Source: Halogeometricum borinquense DSM 11551 (lineage in GTDB: Archaea > Halobacteriota > Halobacteria > Halobacteriales > Haloferacaceae). Taken from it: a stretch of DNA of 32,000 nt. The position numbers and the translations under genes were made by a program. Under the pieces are notes generated by a model that saw only the letters and a program-made list of their open reading frames with translations, was not told where the DNA came from and searched no databases. Location: assembly GCF_000172995.2 (NCBI RefSeq), contig NC_014729.1, positions 2,760,001-2,792,000 of the forward strand, written 5' to 3'. This document shows positions 2,908 through 24,682 of this stretch, piece after piece. Each line of letters starts with the position of its first letter. The stretch's first letter is position 1.

Positions 2908-4452
2908 TCACCACGGCCTCACATCATGAGCAATGTTGTACATCAACTTAAGTTCCTCAGAGGTCCACTTGTACGTTTCAACGTGGGTGCTTTCTTCATG
3001 GCTGTCGTCCATCCCCTTTGGGACTATTGTACACGCCTCAGCATTCCCAAAGTCTTCCTCTGATAGGTCGTTAATGCAGTCGTTTAATCGATCAATGTTT
3101 TCGATTTTAGGTTTGCCAGTCTCACCCCGTGGAATCCCGTAATCTATGTCCTTGAGTGCACGTTTCGCTTGTTTAGTTGCCTTACTCGCATAATCATCGT
3201 CAGTTGAACCAACTTTTTCTTCGACCACCTTCACAACCTCTCCCGACTTTTTGTCCACGATTAGTTTATCGAATTCCGGATTTCTACTGGAATTCACTTG
3301 GACTCCTTTGACCATGGAGTCGTGGCCGGGAACCACGGCAAGTTCGCCTCTCTCGTCGGAGTCCTCAACGAAGCTTTCGACGAGATTTTTCTCAGGGTGC
3401 GACGAAAGGACCTCTCCTACATCTCCTTCACTGGCCCCAAGATCCTTCGGAGAGTCACCGATTCTCCAGAGGTCCTCGAAAAACTCATCATATTTGTCGT
3501 CGTCTACGGTCTGTTCTAACTCAGCGAGTAACTCGTCACTCAATCCCATCTCTTTGAGCGCCACCAGTGGTGACGCCACAGTATCCCGATCAGGGAGGTT
3601 GTTCCAGCGGGGCATCCGCTGAACGTGCACGTCTGAGTGCTCCATGCGATGCACGCCAATCTTTCCGCCTTGCATCACGCGCTGAGCGGTTTCTTCGGCT
3701 TCCCGTTCCAAGCGTGGGTCAGGATCAATCTCTAACTCGCCTGCTTGGGGAAGCATCGACACCGCGCCACCAGTCTGCTGGCGCACGTGCGCGAGTTCGT
3801 GGGCGAGAATATGCTGACCTTCAGCACTCGATGGATCGTATTCGCCGTGGTTGAACGCGATGTGATTCCCGACGGTAAACGCGCGGGCGTTGATATCCTC
3901 GCAAGCTTTCGCGGCCGATGGACCCGTATGGATGCGTACATCGCCCAGATTGTCGCCCATCCGATCTTCCATCGCACGCTGGATGCTCGTGTCGAGTTGC
4001 TGGCCCGGCGAGGAAATCACGTCTCGTACGGAGTCAGGCACGTTCGTGTCGCCAGCTTTCGACGCCTCGTGGTGCGCGCCGCGACTACGCTGGACAGATT
4101 TAGCGTTCCGGCGTTCGATGTCCTTTGGGACTTCTGCGGGGCGTTCTTTCTGACGCTGGCGGAACGCGCGCATGTCGCGTGGCTTGCCCATCGTATCGAC
4201 GGTCATGCCTTCGTCGGCCCATTCTCGGACTTGGTCTGCGCCGTGTTTCTTGGCCAGTCGCTGAATCTTCGTATCCAGCCCGTCCATGTATATTTCGACG
4301 CCGAATCGTGATTCACACTCTTGGGGCGTTAGCGGACCACCGCCACCACGACTCCGAGTCCGATTCAAGCCTCCCGTCAACTCTTGAATAGACGGAACGG
4401 ACGAGGATCGATCACCCTCACGGGCCCGTTCCTCTGTAGATCGAAATTCCAT
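2908..4452 (-). CDS. DUF4157 (zincin-like HExxH) domain protein with a divergent C-terminal domain; polymorphic-toxin-like effector
   Basis: The stretch LGDVRIHTGPSAAKACEDINARAFTVGNHIAFNHGEYDPSSAEGQHILAHELAHVRQQ matches the DUF4157 signature (VRIHt..A..a...A.AfT.G..I.F....y.P....G..LLAHELtHVvQQ). The C-terminal 230 aa are unrelated to this domain. A TATA-like TTATAT lies about 30 nt upstream. Confidence 0.9.
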   Translation of the reverse strand: MEFRSTEERAREGDRSSSVPSIQELTGGLNRTRSRGGGGPLTPQECESRFGVEIYMDGLDTKIQRLAKKHGADQVREWADEGMTVDTMGKPRDMRAFRQRQKERPAEVPKDIERRNAKSVQRSRGAHHEASKAGDTNVPDSVRDVISSPGQQLDTSIQRAMEDRMGDNLGDVRIHTGPSAAKACEDINARAFTVGNHIAFNHGEYDPSSAEGQHILAHELAHVRQQTGGAVSMLPQAGELEIDPDPRLEREAEETAQRVMQGGKIGVHRMEHSDVHVQRMPRWNNLPDRDTVASPLVALKEMGLSDELLAELEQTVDDDKYDEFFEDLWRIGDSPKDLGASEGDVGEVLSSHPEKNLVESFVEDSDERGELAVVPGHDSMVKGVQVNSSRNPEFDKLIVDKKSGEVVKVVEEKVGSTDDDYASKATKQAKRALKDIDYGIPRGETGKPKIENIDRLNDCINDLSEEDFGNAEACTIVPKGMDDSHEESTHVETYKWTSEELKLMYNIAHDVRPW

Positions 4453-4542: not shown

Positions 4543-4926
4543 TTAGAACAGCGCAGAGAGAACGGCGAGGTCGTCGGCCGACGGCCACGTGTAGAGCGCC
4601 CACGCGCCGAACACGTAGGTCATGAGCGGGACTTCGAGGCCGAACGCCCACGGGACCACGAACGGCGTGAGGAGTGCCCCGACCATCGTCGGCGCGAGGT
4701 TCGCAACGACGACGACGACCACGGGCGTCCCAGCGGGGTAGTTGAGTTCGAGACGCGGTGGAACGAGTCGATCGACGAGATCCAACGGGCGGGTTGCCTC
4801 GATCCACGGCCACGCCACCGCAGCATGCGTGAGTTCGTGCGCGAGTACTGCGGGGAACATAACGAGCGCCCCGAGGAGATCGACGAGGCCGACATTCTCT
4901 GAATCCGTATCAGAGGTCGTCGTCAT
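4543..4926 (-). CDS. Small polytopic membrane protein with an HExxH motif (putative membrane-embedded zinc metallopeptidase); last gene of the long operon
   Basis: AHELTHAAV sits at the edge of a hydrophobic helix and there are about 4 TM segments. I chose the start at ATG 4926 because it overlaps the upstream stop (ATGA) and GGAGGTG lies 10 nt upstream. The track ORF extends to 4953. Confidence 0.7.
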   Translation of the reverse strand: MTTTSDTDSENVGLVDLLGALVMFPAVLAHELTHAAVAWPWIEATRPLDLVDRLVPPRLELNYPAGTPVVVVVVANLAPTMVGALLTPFVVPWAFGLEVPLMTYVFGAWALYTWPSADDLAVLSALF

Positions 4927-5282
4927 CGCGGACGAGCACCTCCGCCGTTCCATAAGCTAAACAGTGCAAGCGCCGCGCCGAACAGGATCGACATGAACGC
5001 TCCAATCTTGGCCGCAGGCGGGAGGAACGGCATGAGGAACCCGCCGATCAGGATCGAAATCACTGCGGGGAGATCAGCGCGACCCTCAGTGAGGATGTAG
5101 AGAATCGTGCCGATCCCGATCCCGAGCATGGCCGGCGCAACCGGCCCAAGGAGATCCATGAACGGCTTGACGAACCCCGCCCACGCGTCGCCCTCTTTCC
5201 ACGGATCGTCGTAGGGGCTGTCGTACTGTGCGACCGTACTCGAGAGAACCCACGCGACCTCCAAGAGAACCGAGGACGTCAC
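4923..5282 (-). CDS. Polytopic membrane protein (119 aa) ending NGGGARPR
   Basis: It has 3-4 hydrophobic helices. I chose the GTG start at 5282 because it overlaps the upstream stop (GTGA) and GGGGGTG lies 8 nt upstream. The longer track ORF (to 5375) would overlap the upstream gene by 97 nt. Confidence 0.7.
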   Translation of the reverse strand: MTSSVLLEVAWVLSSTVAQYDSPYDDPWKEGDAWAGFVKPFMDLLGPVAPAMLGIGIGTILYILTEGRADLPAVISILIGGFLMPFLPPAAKIGAFMSILFGAALALFSLWNGGGARPR

Positions 5283-5659
5283 CGCGGACGCACCCCCGAA
5301 CGCCCGGTGAACATGTAGATCACAAATAGACCCATTGACCACGTGAGTGGCGACGCGATCATAACCGCACCCCACGACGGAAGGCCCGCATTGACGAGCA
5401 TATCCGCTAAGGCGTATATCAATACGAACGACGAAACGACCTCGTCAGTACCGGAGATCGTCGCGCCGATAAACGAGGTATCGCTCGAGCCACGACTCGC
5501 TGAGTAGTCCTTGAGATCGCCTTTGCTCTGCGCGACGTCGTCTTGAACGCCCGTGTCCGGTTGCATCCCGAGCCAGTCAGCAGTTCCCGAGGCAGTCATG
5601 GCCCCACCGACGCCCGCTACGCAAACGATGAACAGGAGGATCGTCGCCGGGTGTCTCAT
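5279..5659 (-). CDS. Small secreted/membrane-anchored protein (126 aa)
   Basis: The N-terminal signal-like segment is MRHPATILLFIVCVAGVGGAMTASG, and there are C-terminal TM helices plus a GRSGVRPR tail. ATG 5659 overlaps the upstream stop (ATGA), with GGAGGTG 7 nt upstream. The N-terminal extension of the track ORF is Arg-rich junk. Confidence 0.7.
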   Translation of the reverse strand: MRHPATILLFIVCVAGVGGAMTASGTADWLGMQPDTGVQDDVAQSKGDLKDYSASRGSSDTSFIGATISGTDEVVSSFVLIYALADMLVNAGLPSWGAVMIASPLTWSMGLFVIYMFTGRSGVRPR

Positions 5660-8600
5660 CGCCGACCACCTCCGCCAACGGCCATAGCGACTGCGACGAG
5701 TCCAGCAAACACGACCACCCCGCCGCTCGCGGTGTACCACCCGAGCCACCACATGACCGCGGCAACTCCGGTAACCGCAAGGGAGCCGATCGACGAGAGG
5801 CGACCACCGAACAGCATCCCCACGAACAGGAACAGGCAGGTGAGGATCACAGGCGTCCACTTCGGGCCTATCGGGTTCTCGATGACGTACCGCTTGCCGT
5901 CTGCGAGGTCATTCGAACTCTCGATTACTGTGTTCGACGAGTTGTAAGCGTACCACGTGACCTCCCAATCCGTTTCGGTGAGATTACCAGAGACGGTCTT
6001 GTTGAGGCTGAACGTTCCGTATCCTTCCGTGTACGTGCTGTTCATGATCTCGTTGCTTGAGTTGTTCGCCGCGTGGATGATGACGCGGAGCTTGCTCGTG
6101 TTCTGTGTTGGATCATGGTATTGGAAGTGCACGACGCCGTTCGGTTCCTCGTTGCCGTCGGTGAGGTCGATGTACGCGGCAGAGTGTCTGATCGCCTGCG
6201 TGTTGTCCTCGACTTTCCACGATACCTGGCCGACGTTGAGAGTAACAGTTCCCTTTCGCGTCGCCGTGTAGGCACCGAGCACGCGGCTTGAGTTATGTTC
6301 GCCGACGATACGAATCCGGTATCGACGATCCTTCTCAAGGGTTGCCTCGAAGCGTCCCTCGGCTCCGAAGAAGTCTCCGGAGACCGTGACCCACTCAAGG
6401 CCGCTCGACGTGTTCACCGCGCGCTCGATGTAGAGTTTTGCTCGTTCGTTGGATCCGGAGAACTCACCAGTGAGGTCGTTGAGGACGAACTCGGTGTAGT
6501 AGGCCGTCTTGCTGTCGTTAAGGAGATAGACCGAATCTTGCTCATAGAGTGACGTGATGATCACTGTGCGACGGTTGTGACCGTCCGCCTCGAGGACGAG
6601 GACGTAGGTCCGATCGACTGGCAGATCCGTGAGATTGAGCTTGCCGTTCTCTGTCGATCGCTCAAAGACGAGTTCCCCGGAGAAGAACCGTCCAGTGACG
6701 GTGACATTCGTCCCGTTGATCAACTCCTTGGGTTGGTTGACCGGGCGGATGTAGAGCGTCGATGGGACGAGATAGGTCTTATTCGCCGAGGTCGCGTCAG
6801 GGTTGCTCGAATTTCCCGAACCGTACTCGTCGTAGACGCGCACGTACCAGGAGTGATTGCCTCCGCCGACGTCGGTGATTGTCGTTGACGCCGTCCCGTT
6901 CGCCGAGAGCGTGTCAGTCCCAACGACCTCGCTATCGACGACGAACTCGGCTGTGACGGTGTCGCCGTCGAGCTGGAAGTCCCGGTCGGAGACGTTGACC
7001 GAGAGGGTAACGTCCTTGCTCGTCAACTTCGCCCCGTCCTCCGGGCTCATGCTTGAGGAGTTGACCGTCGGCTCGTAGTGGTCGATCTCCCAGGTGAACG
7101 AGTCCGACTCGGAGGTGAGGCCGTACTCGTCGGTCATCTCGACGTGCCACGTGTGGTTGCCGTCCTCGAGCGGGCCGACGTCGAACGTCACCGTCCCGTT
7201 CTTCGTGACGTTCTTGCTGCCGGCGACGGCGCCGTCGAGCACGAGATCGACCTTGACCTCGTCGCCGCTCGGCTCCGCAAAGTCCCGGTCGGAGACGTCG
7301 ATCGAGATCGTCTCGTTCGCGTATCTCGAGGTCGAACCGTCCGGGCTCGCCGAGCTGTTGTCGACGTCCGCCGCGTAGTGGTTGACCGTAAAGTTCCACG
7401 TCGACGACGTCGTCGCCTCCCCATACTCGTCGGTCGTCTCGACGTGCCACGTGTGGTTGCCGTCCTCGAGCTCGGTTACGGTCGTCGAGACGGTCTGGTT
7501 CGACGTGATCGTTTGTGTGTCGACGATCTCACCGTCGAGATAAACGTCGACGGTGACCGAGTCGCCTTGTGGTGTCGAAAAGTCCGAGTCGGAGATCGGG
7601 ACCGAGAGCGTTACATCCTCGTTGTTGGTGTCGCTCCCGCCGCTTGGAGCCGCCTCAGCTCCGTCTATCGACGGCGCTCGAGGTTGGAACCAAACGCCCT
7701 CGTCATGGATCTCGGCGACCGTCCCCGCCGGTTCGTCGTCGAAGACGACCTTCGTCCGCCACATCTCGTAGCTGGTGTTCCCGAGGTCAAGCGTGTAGTT
7801 CCCCGTCGACGAGTAGGTCGAGCTCTCGACGTCCGTCCAAGACGACGTCGAGGAGTCGTAGGCCTGGATTGTGACCGTCGCGCTCGCGTTCTGGAGCGTG
7901 AGGTCCGCCCACGCCTTCTTTGCGTTCCCAACGTCGTGAGGCTGCGAGATGTACGTCCCGCTGGACTTCTCACCGTTGAGATCGATCGCGTCGAAGTATT
8001 GGGCGTTGTGTTTCCACGCCTCCATCATGATACCGCCGGATTTGACCGTCTCATTGGAATCCGTCGCGGAGAGGGACGCGACGACGTTCCCGGCTTCGTC
8101 GTAGACCGTATAGTTCAGCTCGCCGTTCTCACCCCACTCAATTTTTCCACGGACCCACTCGCCCGAGGGAGTCCCAATATCCTTGTCGCGTAGGGTCGTG
8201 GACGTCCCATTGACGACCTTGATGATTCGGATGTCTTGAACGGTGTAGCCGTGCCTGACCCGATAATAGTTATTCGAGTCCTTCCCGAAATTGAACGCCC
8301 ACCCACCGCCAGAACCATCGTGGTAGGTGCGGAACGAGATCGTGTCGCCCGCGGACGGGTACTTCGGTAGCCCACTCGTCGAAACGAGATCCTCATCGAC
8401 GCTTGGGTCCATCTCGACCGCGTAGTCTCCGCTCCAGACCATCGAGGACTGAACGGTGTCGCCTGTCGTTTGCGTGTATTCGGACAGATCACCGTCCTCG
8501 AAGCCGTCTACGGTCTGGTTTAGCTGTCCTTCCAGCGCCACGGACGCCGACGTGCCGGACCCTTCGACGGAGACGTTCGTGAGCTCGGTCGCGTCGTTGA

Positions 8601-8751
8601 AGTCGCTCGCCGTGGTGTGGGAGCTCCCGACCGCAAGATCGCCGCTACTTGCCGCCGCAACCGGCGCGGTGCTCACGACGAGGTAGGTCGCGAACAGCGC
8701 GAACGCGACGATCGCCGGTCGGCGAGCGTCCTCGAGGCGGTCGCGGATCAC
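5656..8751 (-). CDS. Large secreted protein rich in N-glycosylation sequons, with a C-terminal TM anchor; spike/adhesin-like envelope glycoprotein candidate
   Basis: Signal peptide RRPAIVAFALFATYLVVSTAPVAAASS. More than 30 N-x-S/T sequons. LamG/ConA-like N-terminal region, then three 100-aa beta-sandwich-like repeats. C-terminal TM helices end in VGGGGRR. The probable start is GTG 8751 (GTGA overlap with the upstream stop, GGGGGTG 7 nt upstream). The track start is 8805. Confidence 0.9.
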   Translation of the reverse strand: MIRDRLEDARRPAIVAFALFATYLVVSTAPVAAASSGDLAVGSSHTTASDFNDATELTNVSVEGSGTSASVALEGQLNQTVDGFEDGDLSEYTQTTGDTVQSSMVWSGDYAVEMDPSVDEDLVSTSGLPKYPSAGDTISFRTYHDGSGGGWAFNFGKDSNNYYRVRHGYTVQDIRIIKVVNGTSTTLRDKDIGTPSGEWVRGKIEWGENGELNYTVYDEAGNVVASLSATDSNETVKSGGIMMEAWKHNAQYFDAIDLNGEKSSGTYISQPHDVGNAKKAWADLTLQNASATVTIQAYDSSTSSWTDVESSTYSSTGNYTLDLGNTSYEMWRTKVVFDDEPAGTVAEIHDEGVWFQPRAPSIDGAEAAPSGGSDTNNEDVTLSVPISDSDFSTPQGDSVTVDVYLDGEIVDTQTITSNQTVSTTVTELEDGNHTWHVETTDEYGEATTSSTWNFTVNHYAADVDNSSASPDGSTSRYANETISIDVSDRDFAEPSGDEVKVDLVLDGAVAGSKNVTKNGTVTFDVGPLEDGNHTWHVEMTDEYGLTSESDSFTWEIDHYEPTVNSSSMSPEDGAKLTSKDVTLSVNVSDRDFQLDGDTVTAEFVVDSEVVGTDTLSANGTASTTITDVGGGNHSWYVRVYDEYGSGNSSNPDATSANKTYLVPSTLYIRPVNQPKELINGTNVTVTGRFFSGELVFERSTENGKLNLTDLPVDRTYVLVLEADGHNRRTVIITSLYEQDSVYLLNDSKTAYYTEFVLNDLTGEFSGSNERAKLYIERAVNTSSGLEWVTVSGDFFGAEGRFEATLEKDRRYRIRIVGEHNSSRVLGAYTATRKGTVTLNVGQVSWKVEDNTQAIRHSAAYIDLTDGNEEPNGVVHFQYHDPTQNTSKLRVIIHAANNSSNEIMNSTYTEGYGTFSLNKTVSGNLTETDWEVTWYAYNSSNTVIESSNDLADGKRYVIENPIGPKWTPVILTCLFLFVGMLFGGRLSSIGSLAVTGVAAVMWWLGWYTASGGVVVFAGLVAVAMAVGGGGRR
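6766..7659 (-). repeat. Three tandem 300-nt (100-aa) domain repeats inside the glycoprotein gene
   Basis: Repeat landmarks LEDGNHTWHVETTDEYG, LEDGNHTWHVEMTDEYG and VGGGNHSWYVRVYDEYG are spaced exactly 100 aa apart. Each is preceded by (D/S)VSDRDF-like strands. Confidence 0.85.
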
Positions 8752-9041
8752 CGCGGACCACCCCCACGGAACGATCCCTTGCCCGCGACGACGGCGTAAA
8801 GCCACGCCACGATCCCGATCATAAGGAACGTGGGAGCGATCACGAGCCCGACATCGAGCGTGAAACTCAGGTTGTCGTCAAGGCCCTCCTCCTCGATCGC
8901 GCCGTTGTCAGCTTTCTTGACGGCGTCAGCGGTCCCATCAATCGTCGGGATCCCCACGACGACGAAGATACCACCGAGGAACAGGAGGAGCACCACGATC
9001 ACGAACGCGGAGAGATAGGACCCTCGGCTCTGTCGTCGCAT
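8748..9041 (-). CDS. Small 2-TM membrane protein (97 aa)
   Basis: Two hydrophobic helices flank an acidic loop, and the tail is FRGGGPR. ATG 9041 has GGAGGT 8 nt upstream, inside the end of the preceding gene. Confidence 0.75.
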   Translation of the reverse strand: MRRQSRGSYLSAFVIVVLLLFLGGIFVVVGIPTIDGTADAVKKADNGAIEEEGLDDNLSFTLDVGLVIAPTFLMIGIVAWLYAVVAGKGSFRGGGPR

Positions 9042-9044
9042 GAG

Positions 9045-9341
9045 TTAGAACCTCCGTCCAGTTTCGTTGATGGAGCGCCGAAACGAGATCAGTAAGGCTG
9101 CGAGTGCCGCTCCCCACAACGGCCAATACTCCCACAGGAGCCGATACCGTCGAACCGTCTCCTCGCCCCGGCTTGAATCGGCCATGCTGTTGCTCATGTT
9201 GAACAGCATGTGCTGCGGGCCGTCGAGGAACGACCACAACATAACGGCGAGGAACAGCACGCCGAACAGGAACAGGCCGAACCACGCGAAACTCGCATGG
9301 ACGGTGAGGTTCTCGTCGAGTTCACCGAACCAGTGAGTCAC
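9045..9341 (-). CDS. Small 2-TM membrane protein (98 aa)
   Basis: The GTG start overlaps the upstream stop (GTGA), with GGAGGTG 7 nt upstream. There are two hydrophobic helices. Confidence 0.75.
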   Translation of the reverse strand: MTHWFGELDENLTVHASFAWFGLFLFGVLFLAVMLWSFLDGPQHMLFNMSNSMADSSRGEETVRRYRLLWEYWPLWGAALAALLISFRRSINETGRRF

Positions 9342-12300
9342 CGATGGCCACCTCCGTATCCGGCGTTATCGTCGATGCCCGCAAGCGTCTCCTCGAAGGC
9401 AGCGTTGGCAGAATCGAGAGCGTCGTCAACCGCGGTGGAACGCTCAGCGCTCGCAAGCGTAGCGTCGAGCGCCTCTGTGGCGCTCGCGACGGGATTCACC
9501 CAGTCCTCTCCGTAGCCGACGAGCGGAGCGAACTGATCGATGCGCTCTTGCTCGTCGTCGTTGCTGTCGTCACGTCGGCGGCGATCGTCATCATCCCATG
9601 GACCACGAAGAGGGAGTCCCCCGTCTCCACCTCCACTCCCACCGCTGCTCGACGGAGGATACGACGGGCCACCACCACTGCCATCGCCACCCCCATCGCC
9701 GCCCGGCGGAGGATATGACGGACCCGGACCACCGCCACCGTCGTTACTATCACCGCCTGGCGGGGGATATGACGGGTCAGAGCCACCGCTGCCATCACCA
9801 CCCGACGGTGGATATGACGAGTCAGGACTACCGACACCACCGCTTGGTGGCAAATACCCCGAGCCGGGACCACCACTACCCGATCCACCGTAGGGTGGGA
9901 CGTCCGGCTCGCCACCGGTCGGAGCGCCACCGTAACCGCTCCCGACATCCGGATCAGGATAGCCGAGCGGGACGACGGGGGTAGGATCTGACGCGTCCGC
10001 GCCGTCTTTGTAGGCGTACTGTGAGGCGCGTGCACCGTCAGAATCTGAATCTGTGTCAGGAGACCTATCGGGCCCGTTGTAGGTATTCGTATCCGAGTCG
10101 GCAACTCGTGCTGTCGTGTCAGTATCGACATCGACAGCCCGTCCGGAGGGAAGACCCGCCTGACCTCGGGAGTCTGCGAGGAACGCCTGAGCCTCCTGGG
10201 GGAGATCAACATCGGGGATTTCCGGCGACGGTGGGTTCGGGTTTCTCAAGGTCGTGGTGCCGAACTCGTCTTCGAGATCGCCCCACGATCCGTAGTTTTC
10301 GTCCGGGAGCGACAGATCACCCCACGCGTCTTGCCACGAATCGGCCGCCGCTTTCGTCCCACGAGCCCGCCACCGAGTGATAGGATTGAGCGACTTGCTT
10401 TGCTGTTCGGCCATCCGTTCTGCGATCGTGCCGACGTCAACGACGTCTTTCGACCGCCATGTCTTCGGGGCGATCTCGCCCTCGCCGAACAGCCTCATTC
10501 CCCCTTCGATCTTCGCGTTTACCTGACTCTCAACGGGTTGGATTTTGACACCGTCGGCGGATCGGGTCGGGCCGTGGAGGTCGCCTGACCAATCTTTTTT
10601 CCCACGAGCACGGGAGCGGTCGTTTATATCGACCATGTGATCCCACCCATCCTCGGTCTTGACCTCGATTCCCCCTCGGCGCTGCATGGGACGGTCTTCG
10701 TACTTGCTGAGTATGTCGAAAAGTTCCTTCTGAGCCTTATCGGTATCACCAGTGTAGATGTCTATGTCATCGGGCGTACGGGCCTTCCCCGTCTGCATGA
10801 GTTGTGAGACACTTCCTCCGAGCTCCGAGTCGGTTGTTTTCAGCCACTCAGTGACTTCGGGAGCTGCCTCGTCGGGAATCTGTTGCGCGTTTCGAATCCC
10901 CTTCTCGGCCGTGGTGTCGGTGCCACCACTGACACGATCAACAACGGCATCTGTTCGAGAGCGGTCGCCGAGTCGCTCTGCGATTTCACGTCCTGCCTCG
11001 TATCGTTGCAGATCCGTCCCTTCTAGTTGGTTTCGGAGATTTGTGTCCCATATCGATGTCTCGATGGGCGAGGTTGGGGCAACCCCGCTTGAGTCCGGTC
11101 TCTTTGGAGGCCCTTGGAGATCGACATCCGGCGTTCCCACAGTCGGGCGGTGGTTGGTGACCCCGATTCGAGGAGTCGGGTTCGATCCTGGTAGCTTGGT
11201 TGTAAGGCCGCGGTAGGTCGTGACGTCGCCTCCATCTGGGACCTTCGCCGTCTCTACGCGTACCGGCATCTTTGACCCGATACCGACTTTTGTCGTGAGT
11301 CGCCCCACACCGAACCCAGTCAAGAGACCCAAACCAGCACCACCGACGAACTCAACGGGGCTAGATCGCGCTTCATTGACCATTGCTTCTCCCGCTTCCC
11401 GTCCGAACGCGGTCACGGTTTCACCAACAGCACCCGGCCCGTACTCTTCGACCGCATCGGGAGCGTTCTGTGCGACCTCGATACCCGTCTCGGCAGTTGT
11501 GATGTGCTGCGGAACGTTCAGAAAGTCAACTCCTGCCTTAGCAGCACCTTCGAGCAGTTGTTCCGGGACTCCTTCCTGCGAGTCAGGTACTCCGCCTTCA
11601 TCGGTTTCGATCGTCTTTTTGTAGTCATTAATGTCTTTAGCAACGCTCCTTACCTGCTGTTCTTGATCCTCAGAAAGGAGTCCTCCACTCTTCGTGAGGT
11701 CGTCACTGATATTCGTATTGAATTCAGCGTTGTTGACTGCCTCTCCCGTGTTTTCGGCCGAATTCTCTACACTTTCTTCTACTGCATTTCCAACGTTCGA
11801 GGCAGTCTCACCGACCGTATCCACACCACCACTGACAGAGTTTCCTACGTCACTCACGACGTCCGTGGCGGTATCAGTGGCCGAATCAATGCCACTGTCC
11901 ACGGAGTTGCCAACGTCATTCGTGACGTCAGAGGCAGTATCGGTTACTGTATCAACCCCCTCACCGACAGAATCTCCAACGCCGTTCACGACATCGGAGG
12001 CAGTATCGGTTACCGAGTCGATCCCGTCGTCAACAGAGTTTCCCACATCGTTCCCGATGTCTGAGGCGGTATCGGTGACTGAGTCGATACCATCGTCAAC
12101 AGAGCTGCCTACATCGTTTCCAATGTCTGAGGCGGTGTCGGTAACTGTGTCAACACCGGACTCCACCGCACTCCCAACATCGTCGAAGAATCCGCCACTG
12201 TCGCTGGACGATGAACTCGAGGAGGTTGGCGAGTCCAAGGACGAACCAGAGTGGTCTCGCCCCGCCTCTTGCGATGACCCTGACGAGCCGCCGATCCCGA

Positions 12301-12523
12301 CCGAGTCGGTCACGGAGTCAGCAGCGTCCGAGACGGTGTCGGTGATGCCGTCCCAGAACCCGCCACCGCCGCCCGAGTCGTTCGACGAGGACGAAGAGTG
12401 GGACGATCCCGAGGACCCCGACGAGCCGCTGCTCGAGGAACTACTCGACTGAGAGCCCGACGAACTACCGGAATCACCCGATTCGGATCCGGAATAGCCG
12501 GGGATGTTGTCTAAGAATCCCAT
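9338..12523 (-). CDS. Giant (1061 aa) low-complexity/repeat protein with poly-Ser/Gly tracts, 22-aa tandem repeats, a Gly-rich hydrophobic segment, a globular middle region and a Pro/Gly-rich SYPPxGG region
   Basis: A single uninterrupted ORF. The ATG directly abuts the upstream stop (TAGATG). Composition is extremely acidic, S/G/D/T-rich at the N-terminus. See the repeat features and findings. Confidence 0.9.
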   Translation of the reverse strand: MGFLDNIPGYSGSESGDSGSSSGSQSSSSSSSGSSGSSGSSHSSSSSNDSGGGGGFWDGITDTVSDAADSVTDSVGIGGSSGSSQEAGRDHSGSSLDSPTSSSSSSSDSGGFFDDVGSAVESGVDTVTDTASDIGNDVGSSVDDGIDSVTDTASDIGNDVGNSVDDGIDSVTDTASDVVNGVGDSVGEGVDTVTDTASDVTNDVGNSVDSGIDSATDTATDVVSDVGNSVSGGVDTVGETASNVGNAVEESVENSAENTGEAVNNAEFNTNISDDLTKSGGLLSEDQEQQVRSVAKDINDYKKTIETDEGGVPDSQEGVPEQLLEGAAKAGVDFLNVPQHITTAETGIEVAQNAPDAVEEYGPGAVGETVTAFGREAGEAMVNEARSSPVEFVGGAGLGLLTGFGVGRLTTKVGIGSKMPVRVETAKVPDGGDVTTYRGLTTKLPGSNPTPRIGVTNHRPTVGTPDVDLQGPPKRPDSSGVAPTSPIETSIWDTNLRNQLEGTDLQRYEAGREIAERLGDRSRTDAVVDRVSGGTDTTAEKGIRNAQQIPDEAAPEVTEWLKTTDSELGGSVSQLMQTGKARTPDDIDIYTGDTDKAQKELFDILSKYEDRPMQRRGGIEVKTEDGWDHMVDINDRSRARGKKDWSGDLHGPTRSADGVKIQPVESQVNAKIEGGMRLFGEGEIAPKTWRSKDVVDVGTIAERMAEQQSKSLNPITRWRARGTKAAADSWQDAWGDLSLPDENYGSWGDLEDEFGTTTLRNPNPPSPEIPDVDLPQEAQAFLADSRGQAGLPSGRAVDVDTDTTARVADSDTNTYNGPDRSPDTDSDSDGARASQYAYKDGADASDPTPVVPLGYPDPDVGSGYGGAPTGGEPDVPPYGGSGSGGPGSGYLPPSGGVGSPDSSYPPSGGDGSGGSDPSYPPPGGDSNDGGGGPGPSYPPPGGDGGGDGSGGGPSYPPSSSGGSGGGDGGLPLRGPWDDDDRRRRDDSNDDEQERIDQFAPLVGYGEDWVNPVASATEALDATLASAERSTAVDDALDSANAAFEETLAGIDDNAGYGGGHR
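9614..9961 (-). repeat. Pro/Gly-rich degenerate repeats (SYPPxGG-type motif, about 5 copies) near the C-terminus of the giant protein
   Basis: Protein stretch PPYGGSGSGGPGSGYLPPSGGVGSPDSSYPPSGGDGSGGSDPSYPPPGGDSNDGGGGPGPSYPPPGGDGGGDGSGGGPSYPPSSSGG. Confidence 0.8.
11750..12187 (-). repeat. About 6.5 tandem copies of a 66-nt (22-aa = 2 x 11-aa) repeat in the giant protein gene
   Basis: The units are DSVTDTASDIGNDVGSSVDDGI / DSVTDTASDIGNDVGNSVDDGI / DSVTDTASDVVNGVGDSVGEGV / DTVTDTASDVTNDVGNSVDSGI / DSATDTATDVVSDVGNSVSGGV / DTVGETASNVGNAVEESVENSA. The DNA copies are visibly similar but not identical. Confidence 0.9.
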
Positions 12524-13528
12524 CTACGGGAGCACCCCCGACGGTGGCATAATCATACCCGCGCCGCCCATCGGGATCGAGATCCCACCACCACTGCCAG
12601 CCGCAGTGAACCCGATGTACGCGACAATCGCACCAAGCATGAACGCGCCCATGAGCAGTCCCGCTTGCCCGAGCGGACCGAGCGACGCGAAGCCCTGTTG
12701 ACCTTTCTTCGCATTCTCCGCAACGCGGTGGAACTGTTGCGGCTTGACGTTGAACGGCGCGGCGTGGATCGTATCACGGAGGTCCACGACCTTCCGAGTC
12801 GGGAGCATCGTCTCCCACTCGTCGATCACCGTCTTGCCGCCGTCCGTGAGCGGATCATCCTCGTCGTCTCCGACGCGGTCGCGGGCGGCATCAACACCGT
12901 CACCGAGCCGGTCCCGAGCCGATCCGACGCTCTCACCGAGCTTATCGCGGGCGCGACGACCTTCATCCGCGAGGACCTGCGTGCCGTTCACGAGGCTATC
13001 TGCGATCTGGGTTCCGGCCGCAGCGATCAGTTCCGGACCGTCCTCTTGGGCTTTCCACGTCGCATAGTCAATCGTCGAGAGGTCCTCGGCGTAGTGCTGC
13101 ATCTTGATCCGTGCCTGCCGTCCGACCTCACCGGAGGCCGGTTCGGCAAGCGCGCCGAGGCCGTCGTAGGCGATTGCGAGCGCAGTCCCGCCATACCAAC
13201 CGCCCGGATCTCCGCCGACGCCGCTCGCGTCGTAGAACTCACGACCGTCGGCTGTCGGGACCCAGTACCCGTTATTCTCGCCGTCGTAGGTCGCCGGCTT
13301 GAGCGACCACAGGCCGTCCTCGTCCTTGATCGCCATGAGCGTCTTGCCCATAATCCGTGATCCACGGCCGATCAGTCGCCGCCCGAGCTTGTCTCGGACA
13401 CTGCCGACCGGGATATTGTGACCGCCCATGATCAGGAATATCGAGAGAACCGAGATCACCCCGACGATCGGCATGACCTTGTCCCACAAAATCTGCAAGA
13501 ACAGATTGAGCCACGGCATGAGCGCCAT
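12524..13528 (-). CDS. Membrane protein (334 aa) with an N-terminal TM, a soluble middle and Gly-rich C-terminal TM segments
   Basis: N-terminal helix VMPIVGVISVLSIFLIMGG and C-terminal helices LGQAGLLMGAFMLGAIVAYIGFTAAGSGGG. There is an internal 11-aa periodic stretch ARDKLGESVGS/ARDRLGDGVDA/ARDRVGDDEDD. GGAGGTG lies 8 nt upstream of the ATG. Confidence 0.85.
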   Translation of the reverse strand: MALMPWLNLFLQILWDKVMPIVGVISVLSIFLIMGGHNIPVGSVRDKLGRRLIGRGSRIMGKTLMAIKDEDGLWSLKPATYDGENNGYWVPTADGREFYDASGVGGDPGGWYGGTALAIAYDGLGALAEPASGEVGRQARIKMQHYAEDLSTIDYATWKAQEDGPELIAAAGTQIADSLVNGTQVLADEGRRARDKLGESVGSARDRLGDGVDAARDRVGDDEDDPLTDGGKTVIDEWETMLPTRKVVDLRDTIHAAPFNVKPQQFHRVAENAKKGQQGFASLGPLGQAGLLMGAFMLGAIVAYIGFTAAGSGGGISIPMGGAGMIMPPSGVLP

Positions 13529-13600
13529 CTACGGCTCACCTCCGTTGGATTTCAGCTGTTCGTCCATCGTGAAGTACACGATATTTTCGTTGTTTGACAT
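13529..13600 (-). CDS. Possible 23-codon micro-ORF (MSNNENIVYFTMDEQLKSNGGEP) bridging two operon genes
   Basis: It is not in the ORF track because it is under 60 aa. Its ATG lies 3 nt after the upstream TAA, and its TAG directly abuts the next ATG (TAGATG). Its last codons carry the GGAGGTG that serves the next gene. Confidence 0.3.
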   Translation of the reverse strand: MSNNENIVYFTMDEQLKSNGGEP

Positions 13601-13603
13601 GGG

Positions 13604-14164
13604 TTATCCCACCAATTTCGAGAGAAGACCGCCGCTGCTGTCGTCGCGTTCCTCGACGATTCTGCGCTCTGACTGTTGCTCTGCGAGGAGCTTCTGTTGC
13701 CACCCGTCCCGGGAACGTGTGTTGCGCTCGTAGGCCGCGTCGCGGGTGTCCCGGGCCTCGTGGATCTCTGTCGGCGAGAACGGCCACGGTTTGCCGTCAA
13801 GGCCGGCCACCCTCCGTCGCGGCCCCTGCCATATCGACTCCGAGGGCGGTGCGCTCGCGAGGAGGAGATCCATGTTGATATCGAGCTCGTGCCGGCGATA
13901 CCACAGCTCCGCCTCGTCGAGTTTGCCGAGGATATGGTCCTGGTTCAGCTCCGACGCCCACAACTTCGCGGCGTCGGGCGGCGCTCCCGACCGCGAGAGG
14001 GTCGAGAGGAGATCGCCAGCCGGGTGGTCACCGTAGTTCATGCCACGCGTTGCGGCATCGCGGTCCCACGTCCGGGGTTGCCAGTCATCGTTATTCGCCG
14101 TACTCCGTCCGTTTGCGGGGTTCTCTACAGTCTTCGTGTGTCCGTTAGTTCGTGCGTTACCCAC
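13604..14164 (-). CDS. Soluble hypothetical protein (186 aa), the only clearly non-membrane protein of the operon
   Basis: It has no hydrophobic helices. The GTG start has GAGGTGA 6 nt upstream. Composition is mixed-charge and W-rich. Confidence 0.8.
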   Translation of the reverse strand: MGNARTNGHTKTVENPANGRSTANNDDWQPRTWDRDAATRGMNYGDHPAGDLLSTLSRSGAPPDAAKLWASELNQDHILGKLDEAELWYRRHELDINMDLLLASAPPSESIWQGPRRRVAGLDGKPWPFSPTEIHEARDTRDAAYERNTRSRDGWQQKLLAEQQSERRIVEERDDSSGGLLSKLVG

Positions 14165-14166
14165 GT

Positions 14167-14514
14167 TTAGTCACCTCGTTGGGGTTTTTCGCGCTGTTCG
14201 GGTCCGGTCGGAGCCACCGGGTTATCCTTCCCGAGGACCGCCTCGACCGGATGTTCGGGGAGCTTGTCGAGTCCTTCGAGTATCGTCATGGCGAGCATAA
14301 ACAGGAGACCGCCGAGCCCGAGCGCGAACATGCCGAGCATTGTCCGCGGATCGCCGCCGGTGAGAGGTTCAACAGCGAACGAACTGATTGAGAACGCGCC
14401 GAAGAACACCATGCTCGCCGGCATGGTCGTGAGCGGTGCTCGACGGTCTATGAGTGCTATTTTGGCAGCCCCGAGCGCACCGAAAAGAAGTGCGAGATAA
14501 ACAGGTACGAGCAA
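14167..14514 (-). CDS. Small 3-TM membrane protein (115 aa)
   Basis: The TTG start follows a perfect GGAGGTGATC located in the end of the upstream gene. There are three hydrophobic helices. Confidence 0.75.
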   Translation of the reverse strand: MLVPVYLALLFGALGAAKIALIDRRAPLTTMPASMVFFGAFSISSFAVEPLTGGDPRTMLGMFALGLGGLLFMLAMTILEGLDKLPEHPVEAVLGKDNPVAPTGPEQREKPQRGD

Positions 14515-14520
14515 CGAAGA

Positions 14521-14997
14521 TCACCTCCGTCCACGTCGCCCGCCGCCACCGAACCCGCCGACGAGCCCCAGAATGAGGGCTGCGACGAGGACGATCACGG
14601 CGACCGCGCCGAGGACGAACGCGCTCCCGATCGTGCCGATCGAGTTGCGCGCCATGTCCGGCTTGTGGTCGAAAGCGTAGTCGATCTCCGCGGTCGCACC
14701 GTCTGTTGTACTCGTCGTACTATACCATGCTACCGAGTGATTTCCGGGATACCACTCATAGTCGGTTCCCTCAGTGAGGTTCGTACCCGAACTGTTCGTG
14801 ATCGTCTCGTTTTCATAGTATTTCTCGCCGTACGTCTTGTCAACCGACGTTGCGTTGCCCACGTCTATCGTGATCGACTCGTTCGCGACGCTCGATGTCG
14901 CCATAGCCGGCATCGTGCCGAAAATCGAGGACACAACGTAGATCCCGACGATCAGCATGACCGCCACGGTGACCATCTGGTTAAACGAGTCTTCCAC
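14521..14997 (-). CDS. 2-TM protein with a sequon-rich ectodomain; paralog of the C-terminal half of 15047..15625
   Basis: It shares FNQMVTVAVMLIVGIYV... and ...AVIVLVAALILGLVGGFGGGGRRGRR with its neighbour. The loop has NES, NAT, NET, NSS, NLT and NHS sequons. The track start GTG 15006 lies inside the SD GGAGGTGA, so GTG 14997 (5 nt after it) is preferred. Confidence 0.8.
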   Translation of the reverse strand: MEDSFNQMVTVAVMLIVGIYVVSSIFGTMPAMATSSVANESITIDVGNATSVDKTYGEKYYENETITNSSGTNLTEGTDYEWYPGNHSVAWYSTTSTTDGATAEIDYAFDHKPDMARNSIGTIGSAFVLGAVAVIVLVAALILGLVGGFGGGGRRGRR

Positions 14998-15046
14998 GTG
15001 TCTCACCTCCGTTCATAAGAGTGGTTTTAGGGTGTGAGATGGGTGT

Positions 15047-15625
15047 TTAGCGGCGACCCCGTCCGCGACCACCGAAGCCGCCGACGAGCCCGAGGATCAC
15101 CGAGGCGACGAGGACGATAATCGCGACAGACCCAAGAGTGAACGCGTTACCCGTCGTTGACTTGACGGTGTTTGTTGAGTTCGCGAGTTCGGGGTTCGAC
15201 GGCGTCGGCATCGTCGAACTGATCTGAGCGAACACGTAGATCCCGACGATCAGCGTGACCGCGGCCGACACCATGCGAGTGAATGTCGCTTCAATCGCCG
15301 CGTAGACCTGGGAATCCTCACCGAGGCGCTCGCCGATACCGAGTTCCTCGTCAACCTCATCCCACTGCCGTCCGGCGTAGAGATCGGCCATTTCCTGCTG
15401 AATCTCCGCGGCCGTGCGGACGTCCTCGATCCCACCCTTGAGGCGCTCGCGAACGTCGTTCACGCCGTTGATGATTGCCGCCTGTCCGATAGCGACGAGA
15501 CCCGCACGCTGTTCGGAGCTGAGTCCTTCTGTCTCGATCTCAGCGTCGAGAACGTGGTCGTCGAACTGTTCCGCGTCGTTGCTGCGCCGGTCGTATCCGG
15601 CGTGGGGGGTTGCATGAACCTCCAT
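15047..15625 (-). CDS. First gene of the long operon: an acidic N-terminal soluble domain plus two TM helices, ending GLVGGFGGRGRGRR
   Basis: The ATG start sits at the edge of a 114-nt divergent intergenic region. TM helices are TFTRMVSAAVTLIVGIYVFAQI and GSVAIIVLVASVILGLVGG. Confidence 0.85.
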   Translation of the reverse strand: MEVHATPHAGYDRRSNDAEQFDDHVLDAEIETEGLSSEQRAGLVAIGQAAIINGVNDVRERLKGGIEDVRTAAEIQQEMADLYAGRQWDEVDEELGIGERLGEDSQVYAAIEATFTRMVSAAVTLIVGIYVFAQISSTMPTPSNPELANSTNTVKSTTGNAFTLGSVAIIVLVASVILGLVGGFGGRGRGRR

Positions 15626-15739
15626 ACAGCCGAGAATTATCTCCGCTCGCTTAGATTGGCCAACTTAAGGGCCATTGGCGTGGTTTTGATAAGGTTAAGG
15701 ACAACCGTTTTTGTAAGACTATCAGTATTGAGTATATGT
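15626..15739. promoter_or_regulatory. Divergent promoter region between the minus-strand membrane operon and the plus-strand NTPase module
   Basis: It is AT-richer than its flanks. A TTTTTGTAA element is centred about 28 nt upstream of ATG 15740, and an AATCTAA element about 29 nt upstream of ATG 15625. This spacing fits leaderless haloarchaeal transcripts. Confidence 0.5.
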
Positions 15740-16012: not shown

Positions 16013-16632
16013 GCGACAGTCGCCCCGATAACCGTGACAAGGACGGCCCGACGGGCTCTGATCGACTGATACTCGACGCTTACGAACGAGCCGCTGAACA
16101 CCGCGAGCGCGCGGAACTTGCTCCGTTCGTTCCCGACAACGTGGTGAATTCGGAGATCGCCTCGGCCGAATACTTCGCGTCGGTGATCGAGTATTACAGT
16201 CGGCTTGAGCCGCACCTCCCCGACCGACCGCACTATTGGGAACAGGTCGCGCTCATGCCGAATCCCGTCGGATCCGACCGGAACAAGGTCGTCGATGCGC
16301 TCATGGATTTCTACAACGTCGATGCGGAGACAGCGCTCAACTGCCTTGAGTGGATGGAGGAAGATCCGAGCTTCCCAATCGAGGCACGCGACGACGAACA
16401 GATTATGCACGGGCTCCGCTCCCTGCAAGCGTGGCGCTCGCGCACGACACCAGACACCCAACAGTACGACGACGTCCTTGAGGGCCGCGTCACCGTTCGC
16501 CGCGAACTCCCACAGTATCTCCCGCGTAAGCACACTCTTCGGGTACACACGGTTCTCGACGAGGCGGCGAGCAAGCTCGGGTTCGGTCCCGAGGGTGACA
16601 TCCCCGAAGAATGGGAGAAAGACCCGATCTAA
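16009..16632 (+). CDS. Hypothetical acidic protein (207 aa)
   Basis: ATGA overlap with the AbrB-like gene. Composition is halophile-like. I recognise no motif. Confidence 0.8.
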   Translation: MSDSRPDNRDKDGPTGSDRLILDAYERAAEHRERAELAPFVPDNVVNSEIASAEYFASVIEYYSRLEPHLPDRPHYWEQVALMPNPVGSDRNKVVDALMDFYNVDAETALNCLEWMEEDPSFPIEARDDEQIMHGLRSLQAWRSRTTPDTQQYDDVLEGRVTVRRELPQYLPRKHTLRVHTVLDEAASKLGFGPEGDIPEEWEKDPI

Positions 16633-17712: not shown

Positions 17713-18891
17713 ATGAGTTCGCACTTAAAAATAGAAGACGTTCACGACGCGATTGAGAACGGCGCTCGGACGAAGAATGAAATCGCCGAGGTCGTTGGTA
17801 AATCGCCCTCGAATACGAACCGCAAACTCAAGGCGTGGGTCGAGAACGAGGACGTCCGCCTGGATCGGCACTGGAACCACGGCGACGGTGGCGGCTACGT
17901 CTACACGATTCCCGCCAAGGACGAGATCGACGATGCGGAGGACCTGCCGATCCTCGGCTCTCGCAACTACGACTGGGACCGGTTCGTTCCCGACACCGAG
18001 GACGTTCCCGTGTACCGGCAGGCCGAGCGCGAACTCGACGAGATCAAGGCCGTCCTCAAGGCGCGCGGCGCGACCGGGCAACTCCCACGGTTCCAGATCT
18101 CCGGTCCGACTGGGTGCGGCAAGACGACCCTCGCCGAGTATCTTGCTGCTGACCGCGGCGCGCCCATGATCACGATTCAATGCAACTACGCGCTCCGCGG
18201 CGCGGAACTCCTCGGAACGCCTCAGATCGTCGGTGGTGACGTCATGTGGGTGGACGGTCCGCTCACTCGTGCCCTCCTCGCCTCACGAGAACGCGAGGTC
18301 CTTGTCCTGATCGACGAGGTCACACGCGCAACCGCGCGGTCGAAAGGAACGCTGTTTCCGGCGCTCGATCACCGCGCCGAGGTCAAGATCAAGCCCCGCG
18401 GCAATGAGTTGATCTCCGGCGTAGCCGAGGACATGATCACAGTCGCCACGATGAACGAAGGGCAGGATTACGAAACGGAGGAGCTTGACGCCGCTGAGGA
18501 GCGTCGTCTCGGACTCAAGTGGGAGCTTCCTTACCTCGGGCAGCACTCGCCCGACCTCGAGGCCGAACTCGTTGCGACCAAGACACCGATGCCGAGTACC
18601 GACGCCCGCGTTCTCGTCGATGCCGCCAACGTCGTACGCGACGCCGCCGAGGACGAGTCGGAGCCCGCGATCACCCGCGGTGTCCCGACTCCTGCGGTGA
18701 TCTCTTGGGCACAAACTGCCTACGCGTTCGCTGAGCGTGGGCTCAACGATCCTGTCGGTCGTGCCATGCAGTCCGCGGTCGTCAAGCCCGTCTACGACGA
18801 GGTCGCGGGTGACGTCGCCGGTAAGATACACTCAGCGTTGAAGCGAGCCGACCATGAGCCCGACCTCGGCCCCGAAGAGGTGACGGCATGA
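17713..18891 (+). CDS. MoxR/CbbQ/GvpN-like AAA+ (AAA_5) ATPase with an N-terminal wHTH-like domain
   Basis: Walker A is ISGPTGCGKTTLAEYL and Walker B is VLVLIDEVTRA. The N-terminal TKNEIAEVVGKSPSNTNRKLKAWVEN is HTH-like. GGAGGT lies 9 nt upstream of the ATG. Confidence 0.9.
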   Translation: MSSHLKIEDVHDAIENGARTKNEIAEVVGKSPSNTNRKLKAWVENEDVRLDRHWNHGDGGGYVYTIPAKDEIDDAEDLPILGSRNYDWDRFVPDTEDVPVYRQAERELDEIKAVLKARGATGQLPRFQISGPTGCGKTTLAEYLAADRGAPMITIQCNYALRGAELLGTPQIVGGDVMWVDGPLTRALLASREREVLVLIDEVTRATARSKGTLFPALDHRAEVKIKPRGNELISGVAEDMITVATMNEGQDYETEELDAAEERRLGLKWELPYLGQHSPDLEAELVATKTPMPSTDARVLVDAANVVRDAAEDESEPAITRGVPTPAVISWAQTAYAFAERGLNDPVGRAMQSAVVKPVYDEVAGDVAGKIHSALKRADHEPDLGPEEVTA

Positions 18892-21348: not shown

Positions 21349-21560
21349 TATGGGGCACCTCGGTTCGGGAGTAGTCGGAGAGTCATACGGTCGTGTAGTG
21401 GCTGCAACTACGCCCTAACCGTCTCCTCGCGGTTTCATAAACCACGGCGGATAACCTTATTCGAATAAGATTTGGTTTAAACAGTTTACTCCCGCTATCT
21501 GTTGTGTTGAATCTCAACATCTGCCAAACTCTTATCAATTCACATCGCAGAGAACCGCAT

Positions 21561-21743: not shown

Positions 21744-21924
21744 TTTGGTTAGCGCTAAGTAGTCGTTGGCAATTAACGTCGAGCTATTCTGGTTTCATCG
21801 CAACTTTCTCTGCAAGATGTACTGAACAGTCTCCTCGATATAGACGAAGCTGTAGGAATACGATTCTTTCCGTGTTCAGCAGCTATCCTGTCATTTGAAA
21901 TATTTTTGTCCTATACAGATATAT

Positions 21925-24655: not shown

Positions 24656-24682
24656 GTTACTCTATCTAGTCCACCGATTTAG

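Follow-up and report, generated by a model that had tools for sequence, protein, structure and literature searches.

The chromosome of Halogeometricum borinquense DSM 11551 carries, on the minus strand of a 32,000-nucleotide (nt) stretch that was analyzed as a whole (the window, to which positions refer unless another locus is named), 13 consecutive, tightly packed open reading frames (ORFs) running from 15625 to 4543, designated g1, g2, g3, g4, g4b and g5 to g12. We conclude that these genes very probably constitute a polycistronic operon, lying in an integrated mobile element and encoding mostly small membrane proteins, that is translationally coupled in the way already known from haloarchaea. 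Most of the internal genes are preceded by a Shine-Dalgarno (SD) motif written into the last codons of the gene before them. At these codons selection acts at the nucleotide level beyond the needs of the amino acids, and the encoded tails appear to be under a constraint of their own. The genes, whose products contain one to three hydrophobic segments in 10 of the 13 cases, are listed below (aa, amino acids; TM, transmembrane).

g1, 15047..15625, minus strand: first gene, 192 aa, two hydrophobic segments, tail GGFGGRGRGRR; SD neither upstream nor in the tail
g2, 14521..14997, minus strand: g1 paralog by repeat analysis, 158 aa, GTG start, tail GGFGGGGRRGRR encoded by ...GGA CGG AGG TGA
g3, 14167..14514, minus strand: 2-TM protein of 115 aa, TTG start at 14514, tail QRGD
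g4, 13604..14164, minus strand: soluble protein of 186 aa, more conserved than any other in the operon; its tail SKLVG holds just a weak motif, GGTGGGA
g4b, 13529..13600, minus strand: micro-ORF of 23 codons (MSNNENIVYFTMDEQLKSNGGEP), tail NGGEP, bridging the 75-nt gap between g4 and g5
g5, 12524..13528, minus strand: 334 aa, hydrophobic segments at the N- and C-terminus, tail PPSGVLP
g6, 9338..12523, minus strand: 1061 aa, rich in Ser, Asp and Gly, with tandem repeats, tail GYGGGHR
g7, 9045..9341, minus strand: membrane protein of 98 aa whose hydrophobic stretch is weaker and below threshold, tail ETGRRF
g8, 8748..9041, minus strand: 2-TM protein of 97 aa, tail FRGGGPR
g9, 5656..8751, minus strand: 1031 aa, signal peptide, immunoglobulin (Ig)-like repeats, C-terminal TM segments, tail VGGGGRR
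g10, 5279..5659, minus strand: membrane protein of 126 aa, ATG start at 5659, tail RSGVRPR
g11, 4923..5282, minus strand: 3-TM protein of 119 aa, GTG start at 5282, tail NGGGARPR
g12, 4543..4926, minus strand: last gene, membrane protein of 127 aa with a HELTH motif, tail LAVLSALF

At 11 of the 12 internal starts, GGAGGTG(A), GGGGGTG, GAGGTGA or GGAGGTT was found 5-10 nt upstream. Ten of these motifs lie within the last codons of the upstream gene, that is, inside its coding sequence (CDS) as in known coupled pairs, and one is intergenic, between g1 and g2.

SD for g2, 15003..15010, minus strand: GGAGGTGA, intergenic, 5 nt before the GTG and 37 nt past the g1 stop, preceded by a conserved ATG
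SD for g3, 14521..14528, minus strand: GGAGGTGA, formed by the g2 Arg codons CGG AGG and the stop TGA; spacer of 6 nt to the TTG at 14514
SD for g4, 14171..14177, minus strand: GAGGTGA in the g3 codons CGA GGT GAC
SD for g5, 13536..13543, minus strand: GGAGGTGA in the g4b codons GGA GGT GAG
SD for g6, 12533..12539, minus strand: GGGGGTG in the g5 codons TCG GGG GTG
SD for g7, 9349..9355, minus strand: GGAGGTG, 7 nt before the GTGA overlap
SD for g8, 9049..9055, minus strand: GGAGGTT in the g7 codons GGA CGG AGG TTC
SD for g9, 8759..8765, minus strand: GGGGGTG, 7 nt before the GTGA overlap
SD for g10, 5667..5673, minus strand: GGAGGTG, 7 nt before the ATGA overlap
SD for g11, 5291..5297, minus strand: GGGGGTG in the g10 tail
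SD for g12, 4937..4943, minus strand: GGAGGTG, 10 nt before the ATGA overlap

An original prediction, made from the letters of this DNA, had proposed that G-rich motifs in the last codons of each gene are the SD of the next one, and the excess, spacing and conservation of the motifs bear this out. All six plus-strand CACCTCC copies that it listed are present (4937-4943, 5667-5673, 9349-9355, 13537-13543, 14522-14528 and 15004-15010), as are its five variants (GGGGGTG three times, GAGGTGA and GGAGGTT), and the distance of 5-10 nt that it gave agrees with our junctions. The start/stop arrangements ATGA (4926, 5659), GTGA (5282, 8751, 9341) and TAGATG (12523, 13528) are correct, and so are the nine tails that it quoted, NGGEP being the tail of g4b. 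It had placed the motif in the upstream tail at 11 junctions; the number of starts with a motif holds, but only ten of the motifs are in a CDS, because g1 stops 49 nt before the g2 start and its tail encodes no SD.

The distances from gene to gene are -4 nt at five junctions, 0 at two, +2 at one, +3 at two, +6 at one and +49 nt between g1 and g2. All junctions except g1-g2 thus fall within the co-directional range of -8 to +10 nt, taken as the range of coupling (PMC10666635), and the arrangement is kept in homologous loci. GGAGGTG occurs 13 times in the window, compared with 4.4 +/- 2.1 times in dinucleotide shuffles, none of 100 shuffles reaching 13. Two more minus-strand copies lie off the junctions, at 9628-9634 in a Gly-rich tandem repeat of g6 and at 16213-16219 outside the operon. 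The energy of the duplex with the anti-SD sequence ranged from -10.7 to -19.8 kcal/mol at 11 of the 12 internal starts, placing each of them among the extreme 0.06-4.5% of operon positions. Only 4.5% of operon positions reach -10.7 kcal/mol or lower, which gives a binomial probability of about 2e-14 for 11 of 12 starts. The sole junction without a good SD is g4-g4b (-7.4 kcal/mol). Upstream of g1 the energy is -6.6 kcal/mol, within the background (-4.9 for the operon), showing that the leading gene has no SD.

The starts at 14997, 8751, 5659, 5282 and 4926 are supported by the homologs. The -4 NTG is present in every one of them, and several have either no other in-frame NTG upstream of the -4 start or a stop directly upstream. 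Where the window has a TTG or GTG start, other loci have ATG in the corresponding position, as at the TTG of g3, where locus L005 has ATG, and g9 starts at the GTG at 8751, not at 8805. The same -4 overlaps were chosen by the gene callers in all homologous contigs. The starts that the original prediction had put forward as revisions are therefore right, but they differ only from a naive longest-ORF track and equal the deposited annotation, in which the H. borinquense proteins already have these lengths (119 aa for g11, 97 aa for g8 and 334 aa for g5). At the -4 overlaps of the window (8748-8765, 5656-5673, 5279-5297 and 4923-4943) and of the homologs, the last sense codon is nearly always Arg CGA or CGG. 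The exceptions are Trp or Pro at the end of g6 in three loci, and the tails otherwise end in P-R or R-R.

Selection on the nucleotides themselves was analyzed by synonymous resampling, in which the tail codons were redrawn from local codon usage with the amino acids fixed and the pairing with the anti-SD was scored. At all ten in-CDS junctions the observed SD was stronger than 88-99.8% of the synonymous recodings (per-junction p = 0.002-0.12; Fisher combined p = 4.4e-9). Codon choice pointed the same way. AGG makes up about 3-4% of the Arg codons in the operon genes (7/167); two of these seven codons help to build the SDs in which g2 and g7 end, and the AGG at the g7 end is present in 6/6 g7 homologs. 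Likewise, GGR-GGT dicodons encode 5/13 Gly-Gly pairs in the tails, compared with 2/61 elsewhere (p = 0.0014).

The homologs show how the motif persists while its surroundings change. Among nine loci the g10 tail residue that overlaps the SD is G, E, Q or D, and (G/A)G(G/A)GGTG is retained in 8/9. The g5 tail reads SGV (TCG GGG GTG) in the window and LEV (TTG GAG GTG) in L003, so that the change from SG to LE turns GGGGGTG into GGAGGTG and keeps the SD. In the g7 tail, GGA CGG AGG alternates with GGG AGG CGG, and GGAGG slides by 3 nt with G-R-R unchanged. The terminal Arg codon toggles between CGA and CGG, switching the next start between ATG and GTG. Where no coupled gene follows, the motif is missing: g12, the last gene, is without Gly/Arg tail and without SD in 9/9 loci, and in L003 and L011, where an insertion containing an insertion sequence (IS) parts g6 from g7, an SD was found neither at the g6 end nor upstream of g7. 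In L011, g7 has become the first gene of its unit through this insertion and has an AT-rich upstream region without SD. The insertion (L003 14775-18589; L011 2190-6280) carries genes for a DDE_Tnp_1 transposase and a DUF7978 protein, plus two more.

The tails appear to be selected independently of the motif as well, as judged from a few loci. The g1 tail GGFGGR(G/R)(G/R)(G/A)RR is conserved in four loci and contains no SD. In L016 the operon breaks after g8 (800-920), where an AT-rich non-coding stretch takes the place of an overlapping gene; there, g8 keeps FRGGGPR, recoded as CGT GGC GGC GGG CCA CGG, and the SD is gone. This g8 is a natural separation of the two constraints. Elsewhere VRPR, ARPR, GGPR and GGRR, the residues of the spacer, do not vary while the codons for them drift, switches between CGN and AGA included. 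The positive-inside rule for the topology of membrane proteins is well established, and the short, Arg-rich tails of g1, g2, g8, g9, g10 and g11 appear to fit it: all six follow the last hydrophobic segment by 8-12 residues and carry a net charge of +2 to +4. The tails of g3, g4b, g5 and g6 are of another type. Most tails had been said to follow a TM helix, which is so for six, or seven with the weaker stretch of g7, out of the 11 junction-forming tails (g1 to g11, including g4b). The further claim that the Gly/Arg tails encode the SD stands insofar as the motif is embedded in them, although, as g1 in four loci and the L016 g8 show, the tails are not a mere product of it; they exist anyway, and the SD is worked into them. 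That one set of nucleotides answers to two constraints, also claimed beforehand, is borne out by the synonymous resampling, the codon usage and the homolog tails. The comparison of nucleotide with amino-acid conservation in homologous operons, which had been suggested as a check and covered about 10 loci, shows a nucleotide and a protein constraint that are separable.

If the Gly/Arg tails existed purely for protein reasons, as a flexible linker and positive-inside anchor in a genome of 60% GC, the SD-likeness could be incidental. The amino acids alone do give some of it, because recoded Gly-rich tails still average -9 to -11.5 kcal/mol, below the operon background of -4.9, and the g1 tail is rich in Gly and Arg without any SD function. 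This explanation is nevertheless extremely unlikely, given that the observed motifs beat most recodings at every in-CDS junction with the combined probability reported above, that the rare AGG recurs precisely at the motif, that the spacing to the start is fixed, that tails of other composition (PSGVLP, QRGD, NGGEP) also bear the motif, and that the L016 g8 tail and the g1 tails avoid GGAGG where no start follows. Conversely, the tails could result from the SD and nothing else, with any C-terminal peptide that accommodates GGAGGTG being sufficient and the amino acids having no role of their own. The variable residues over the SD core (G/E/Q/D in g10, SG/LE in g5), the absence of a Gly/Arg tail from g12 and the tails of the g4b slot, whose GG[ED]x is simply GGAGGTGA(N) read in frame, all suit this idea. 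It is hard to reconcile with a g1 tail conserved in four loci without SD, with the retention of FRGGGPR in the L016 g8 after loss of the SD, with RPR, GPR and GRR remaining invariant through synonymous changes (CGN/AGA switches among them), and with the position and charge of the six tails that follow a hydrophobic segment, and we consider it very unlikely.

A different possibility is that the SDs drive independent de novo initiation at internal sites, leaving the downstream genes uncoupled from upstream translation. The g2 junction argues for it: its SD is a perfect GGAGGTGA, and by the H. volcanii data a 49-nt gap is beyond the reach of reinitiation (PMC10666635), so that initiation at this site must in some measure be independent and SD-assisted or take another route. 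As a general explanation it is unlikely. De novo initiation was not seen at the intragenic SDs of overlapping gene pairs in Haloferax volcanii, where the SD is not used at 5′ untranslated regions either (PMC6728339). In addition, the junctions of -4, 0 and +3 nt are strictly conserved across homologs, as would suit starts that need a ribosome to arrive, g7 lacks an SD in the locus in which it is the first gene of its unit (L011) and, as weaker evidence, an open bridge ORF is retained across the g4-g5 gap.

By analogy with the H. volcanii experiments, we therefore favor translational coupling by termination-reinitiation over independent initiation, on what would be a single transcript; the latter is plausible because the coding strand of the operon has no run of at least five T over its 11 kb. 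A ribosome ending on gene n would reinitiate at gene n+1, whose start lies -4 to +6 nt from the stop, aided by an SD (consensus GGAGGTGA, complementary to the 3′ end of 16S rRNA) located 5-10 nt upstream. Since neighboring genes abut or overlap, this SD would have room only within the final 3-8 codons of gene n, where it would be read, depending on the frame, as Gly-Gly-(Gly/Ala/Glu), as Arg-Arg-stop or as x-(Gly/Glu)-Val. The motif would be fitted into short cytoplasmic tails that are already rich in Gly and Arg, as expected of a positive-inside anchor after the last TM helix. The fitting follows three routes: the unusual synonymous codons GGA, GGT and AGG; tolerated replacements by Gly, Glu or Gln where the position is otherwise free; and an Arg CGA or CGG as last codon, the third base of which toggles the next start between ATG and GTG.

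This mechanism has been described in general and for haloarchaea (PMC6728339, PMC10666635, PMC4943179). For haloarchaea it is documented with the SD motif in the end of the upstream gene and junctions of -4 to +10 nt (Huber 2019, 2023; Diwan and Agashe 2016). Overlapping gene pairs typically carry SD motifs in the 3′ portion of the upstream gene (Huber 2019, PMC6728339). In haloarchaea the SD serves reinitiation and not de novo initiation, coupling in H. volcanii is strict, and removal of the SD caused a 20-80% loss of reinitiation in 6/7 H. volcanii gene pairs (PMC6728339). Reinitiation in this species collapses at intergenic distances of about 20 nt, and coupled pairs are 8-fold enriched for subunits of heteromeric complexes (Huber 2023, PMC10666635). 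The operon resembles the termination-reinitiation pairs of H. volcanii and Escherichia coli (PMC6728339, PMC10666635; review 2025, PMC12548453) in its NTGA (-4) overlaps and distances of up to +6 nt, in the SD at canonical spacing in the upstream 3′ end, and in genes that are plausibly subunits of one (membrane) complex. It also follows the haloarchaeal pattern, in which internal genes have an SD and the leading gene has none (g1; g7 in L011). It is the same in kind as these pairs and differs in chaining 11 junctions, 92% of the internal starts having a strong motif, and in that coupling is predicted here from the sequence. SD-like hexamers made of Gly, Arg and Glu codons are enriched at the C-terminal ends of operon and overlapping genes (Diwan and Agashe 2016, PMC4943179). 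The codons are the same as those at the gene ends here (GGA/GGT/GGG, AGG and GAG), and so are the distance from motif to start and the link with operons and overlaps. By contrast with those genome statistics, the trade-off is resolved here residue by residue across homologs, through codon choice, G/E/Q swaps and a 3-nt slide. The operon is thus a natural, clean example of how the SD of the next gene is fitted into the last codons, with little mechanistic novelty. Its value lies in annotation and teaching, in that the starts can be trusted, that unusual Gly/Arg codons at gene ends signal coupling and that a tail can be separated from an RNA signal.

Several points weigh against this reading. 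Two junctions misfit simple coupling, g1-g2 by its 49-nt gap and g4-g4b by its weak SD. The motif is also common in comparable settings: among 27 other close co-directional pairs, from outside the operon in the loci analyzed, 56% reached -10.7 kcal/mol or lower (median -11.8), compared with 92% (median -15.1) in the operon (Mann-Whitney p = 0.013). The operon is a dense example, richer only in quantity and not different in kind. Between homologs, synonymous third positions are 70% identical inside the SD and 52% in neighboring codons, which supports selection on the nucleotides, but the figures come from non-independent pairwise counts and overstate independence, the loci being related. The homologs as a whole are about 10 phylogenetically related loci, some of them on short contigs. 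The anti-SD sequence used for the duplex energies came from general knowledge, the window having no 16S gene. That the genes share one transcript, that the proposed starts are used and that downstream translation depends on upstream translation are inferences. The original prediction had gone further, to a strictly stoichiometric relay along the whole 11-kb transcript. This finds no support, because the 49-nt gap between g1 and g2 exceeds the experimental range of reinitiation (PMC10666635), and the efficiency of reinitiation is specific to the gene pair.

The slot between g4 and g5 is occupied by ORFs of different lengths, a two-TM protein of 116 aa in L003, another of 79 aa in L005, a 26-codon ORF in Halolamina and the 23 codons of g4b in the window.

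g4b slot: window 13529-13600 (minus strand); L003 9651-10001; L005 9762-10001; L001 9924-10001

g4b shares its N-terminus (MS....YF..D..LK) and its C-terminus (GGE.) with the long form and, because both termini are shared, it looks like the remnant of an in-frame internal deletion. In each of the four loci, the ORF of this slot begins 2-3 nt past the g4 stop and ends in GG[ED]x encoded by GG(A/G)GGTGA, and in the window (TAGATG) and L001 (TGATG) its stop abuts the g5 ATG. If g4b were absent, coupling would be expected to fail at the 75-nt gap, and the sequences are suggestive of an ORF that is kept for its translation. The evidence consists of two short cases, which is a weak base, as any deletion is in frame one time in three by chance. 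Bicistronic-design or leader-ORF couplers of synthetic biology are short ORFs whose 3′ codons hold the SD of the target gene and whose stop overlaps the target start. g4b, which begins 3 nt past the g4 stop, is like them in having GGAGGTGA in its last codons and a TAG directly before the g5 ATG; it differs in being natural and in looking like what is left of a gene for a membrane protein of 79-116 aa, and its bridging role is putative. A broader proposal is that the operon codes for an uncharacterised membrane machine of several subunits, belonging to a rare haloarchaeal integrative element, that an unbroken hand-over of ribosomes along the operon is selected, and that after decay of the gene between g4 and g5 a bridge ORF of 23-26 codons has been kept in H. 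borinquense, and separately in Halolamina, solely to carry ribosomes over the gap. We regard this as tentative and rather doubtful; if true, the bridge ORF would offer a small example, open to testing, of an ORF that is maintained for the sake of being translated and not for its product.

An ATG is also found 0-9 nt upstream of the intergenic GGAGGTG in the g1-g2 spacer of all four loci (window 14998-15046, minus strand; L001 8461-8510; L003 8171-8218; L005 8380-8420). The tiny ORFs that begin there read MNGGETRGRLV*, MSNGGENRGGRV*, MTEV* and MEVKKPEPVT*, and the ATG before the g2 SD might be a device similar to the bridge ORF. In L005 no ATG, GTG or TTG is present at the expected g2 start.

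The chaining of 11 probably coupled junctions is an argument that all 13 proteins, of which ten are membrane proteins, assemble into a single complex belonging to an otherwise unannotated mobile element. Searches of the operon proteins against Pfam, PHROGs and NCBIfam gave only Ig-like domains in g9 and low-complexity, tape-measure-like matches in g6 above threshold, which do not reveal the identity of the encoded machine. The product of 12524-13528 (g5) is 100% identical to C499_08697. For g4, a sequence search of the PDB gave no match, and a single-sequence AlphaFold model had a predicted local distance difference test score (pLDDT) of 54, too poor for a fold search. The HELTH (HExxH) motif of g12 lies inside a hydrophobic segment; the protein has no family matches and may be an intramembrane metalloprotease-like protein. 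A sorting signal of the archaeosortase type (PGF-CTERM and similar) was rejected as the identity of the tails. In g1 and g2 the GGFGG motif comes after the hydrophobic segment, the reverse of the order of such signals (motif, TM helix, basic cluster), and the sorting-signal models of NCBIfam/TIGRFAM gave no NCBIfam matches for g1-g5, g7, g8 and g10-g12. A mobile repeat shared by the junctions was ruled out too; the repeats that were found are the g1/g2 paralogy, the Ig-domain repeats of g9 and, in g6 (9627-9833, minus strand), four tandem 54-nt repeats, one of them of 45 nt, encoding Gly/Ser/Pro-rich units of the PSYPP.GG type.

Upstream of g1, at about 15660-15730 (minus strand), CTTACAAAA-n-GTCCTTAACCTTA lies ~70-100 nt before the g1 ATG and is kept in four loci. 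A TTAAnTT box at about -42 of g1 is conserved among four loci as well. A role as promoter or regulator sites is probable for both motifs, either for the operon or for the divergent promoter region.

Halolamina salifodinae and Halarchaeum salinum have syntenic copies of the operon, as do contigs from hypersaline metagenomes. A genome scan for more loci returned only two genomes, both already known, and scans of viral and metagenome sequences returned none. The 11-kb operon DNA had no match in phage and plasmid collections, nor did g5, g4 and g2 in tblastn searches of plasmids and phages. No tRNA was found in the window, and no RNA in an Rfam search. The neighborhood of the operon indicates that it lies in an integrated mobile element about 29 kb in size. 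It includes a divergent operon encoding a MoxR-type AAA_5 ATPase and a VWA protein, two genes for tyrosine recombinases, a DUF7845 protein carrying a helix-turn-helix (HTH) domain and an eCIS_core/DUF4157 protein. Features of the element lie at 73-1689 (plus strand), 2908-4452 (minus strand), 22577-23182 (plus strand), 27903-28931 (plus strand) and 21000-27000. A stretch of low GC content (about 50%) holds an M10-like metalloprotease, and the DUF7845 protein with HTH domain also adjoins the operon end in L009-L011. Host-like genes (DUF7847, DnaJ-ferredoxin) begin at about 29.6 kb; a purine skew at 29-31 kb, considered as a special feature, is explained by these minus-strand genes. In the divergent operon, the AAA_5 ATPase gene ends in ...GAA GAG GTG ACG GCA TGA (18874-18891, plus strand; tail PEEVTA), placing GAGGTGA 4 nt before a 61-codon ORF with an ATGA overlap; the remaining junctions of that operon are without SD.

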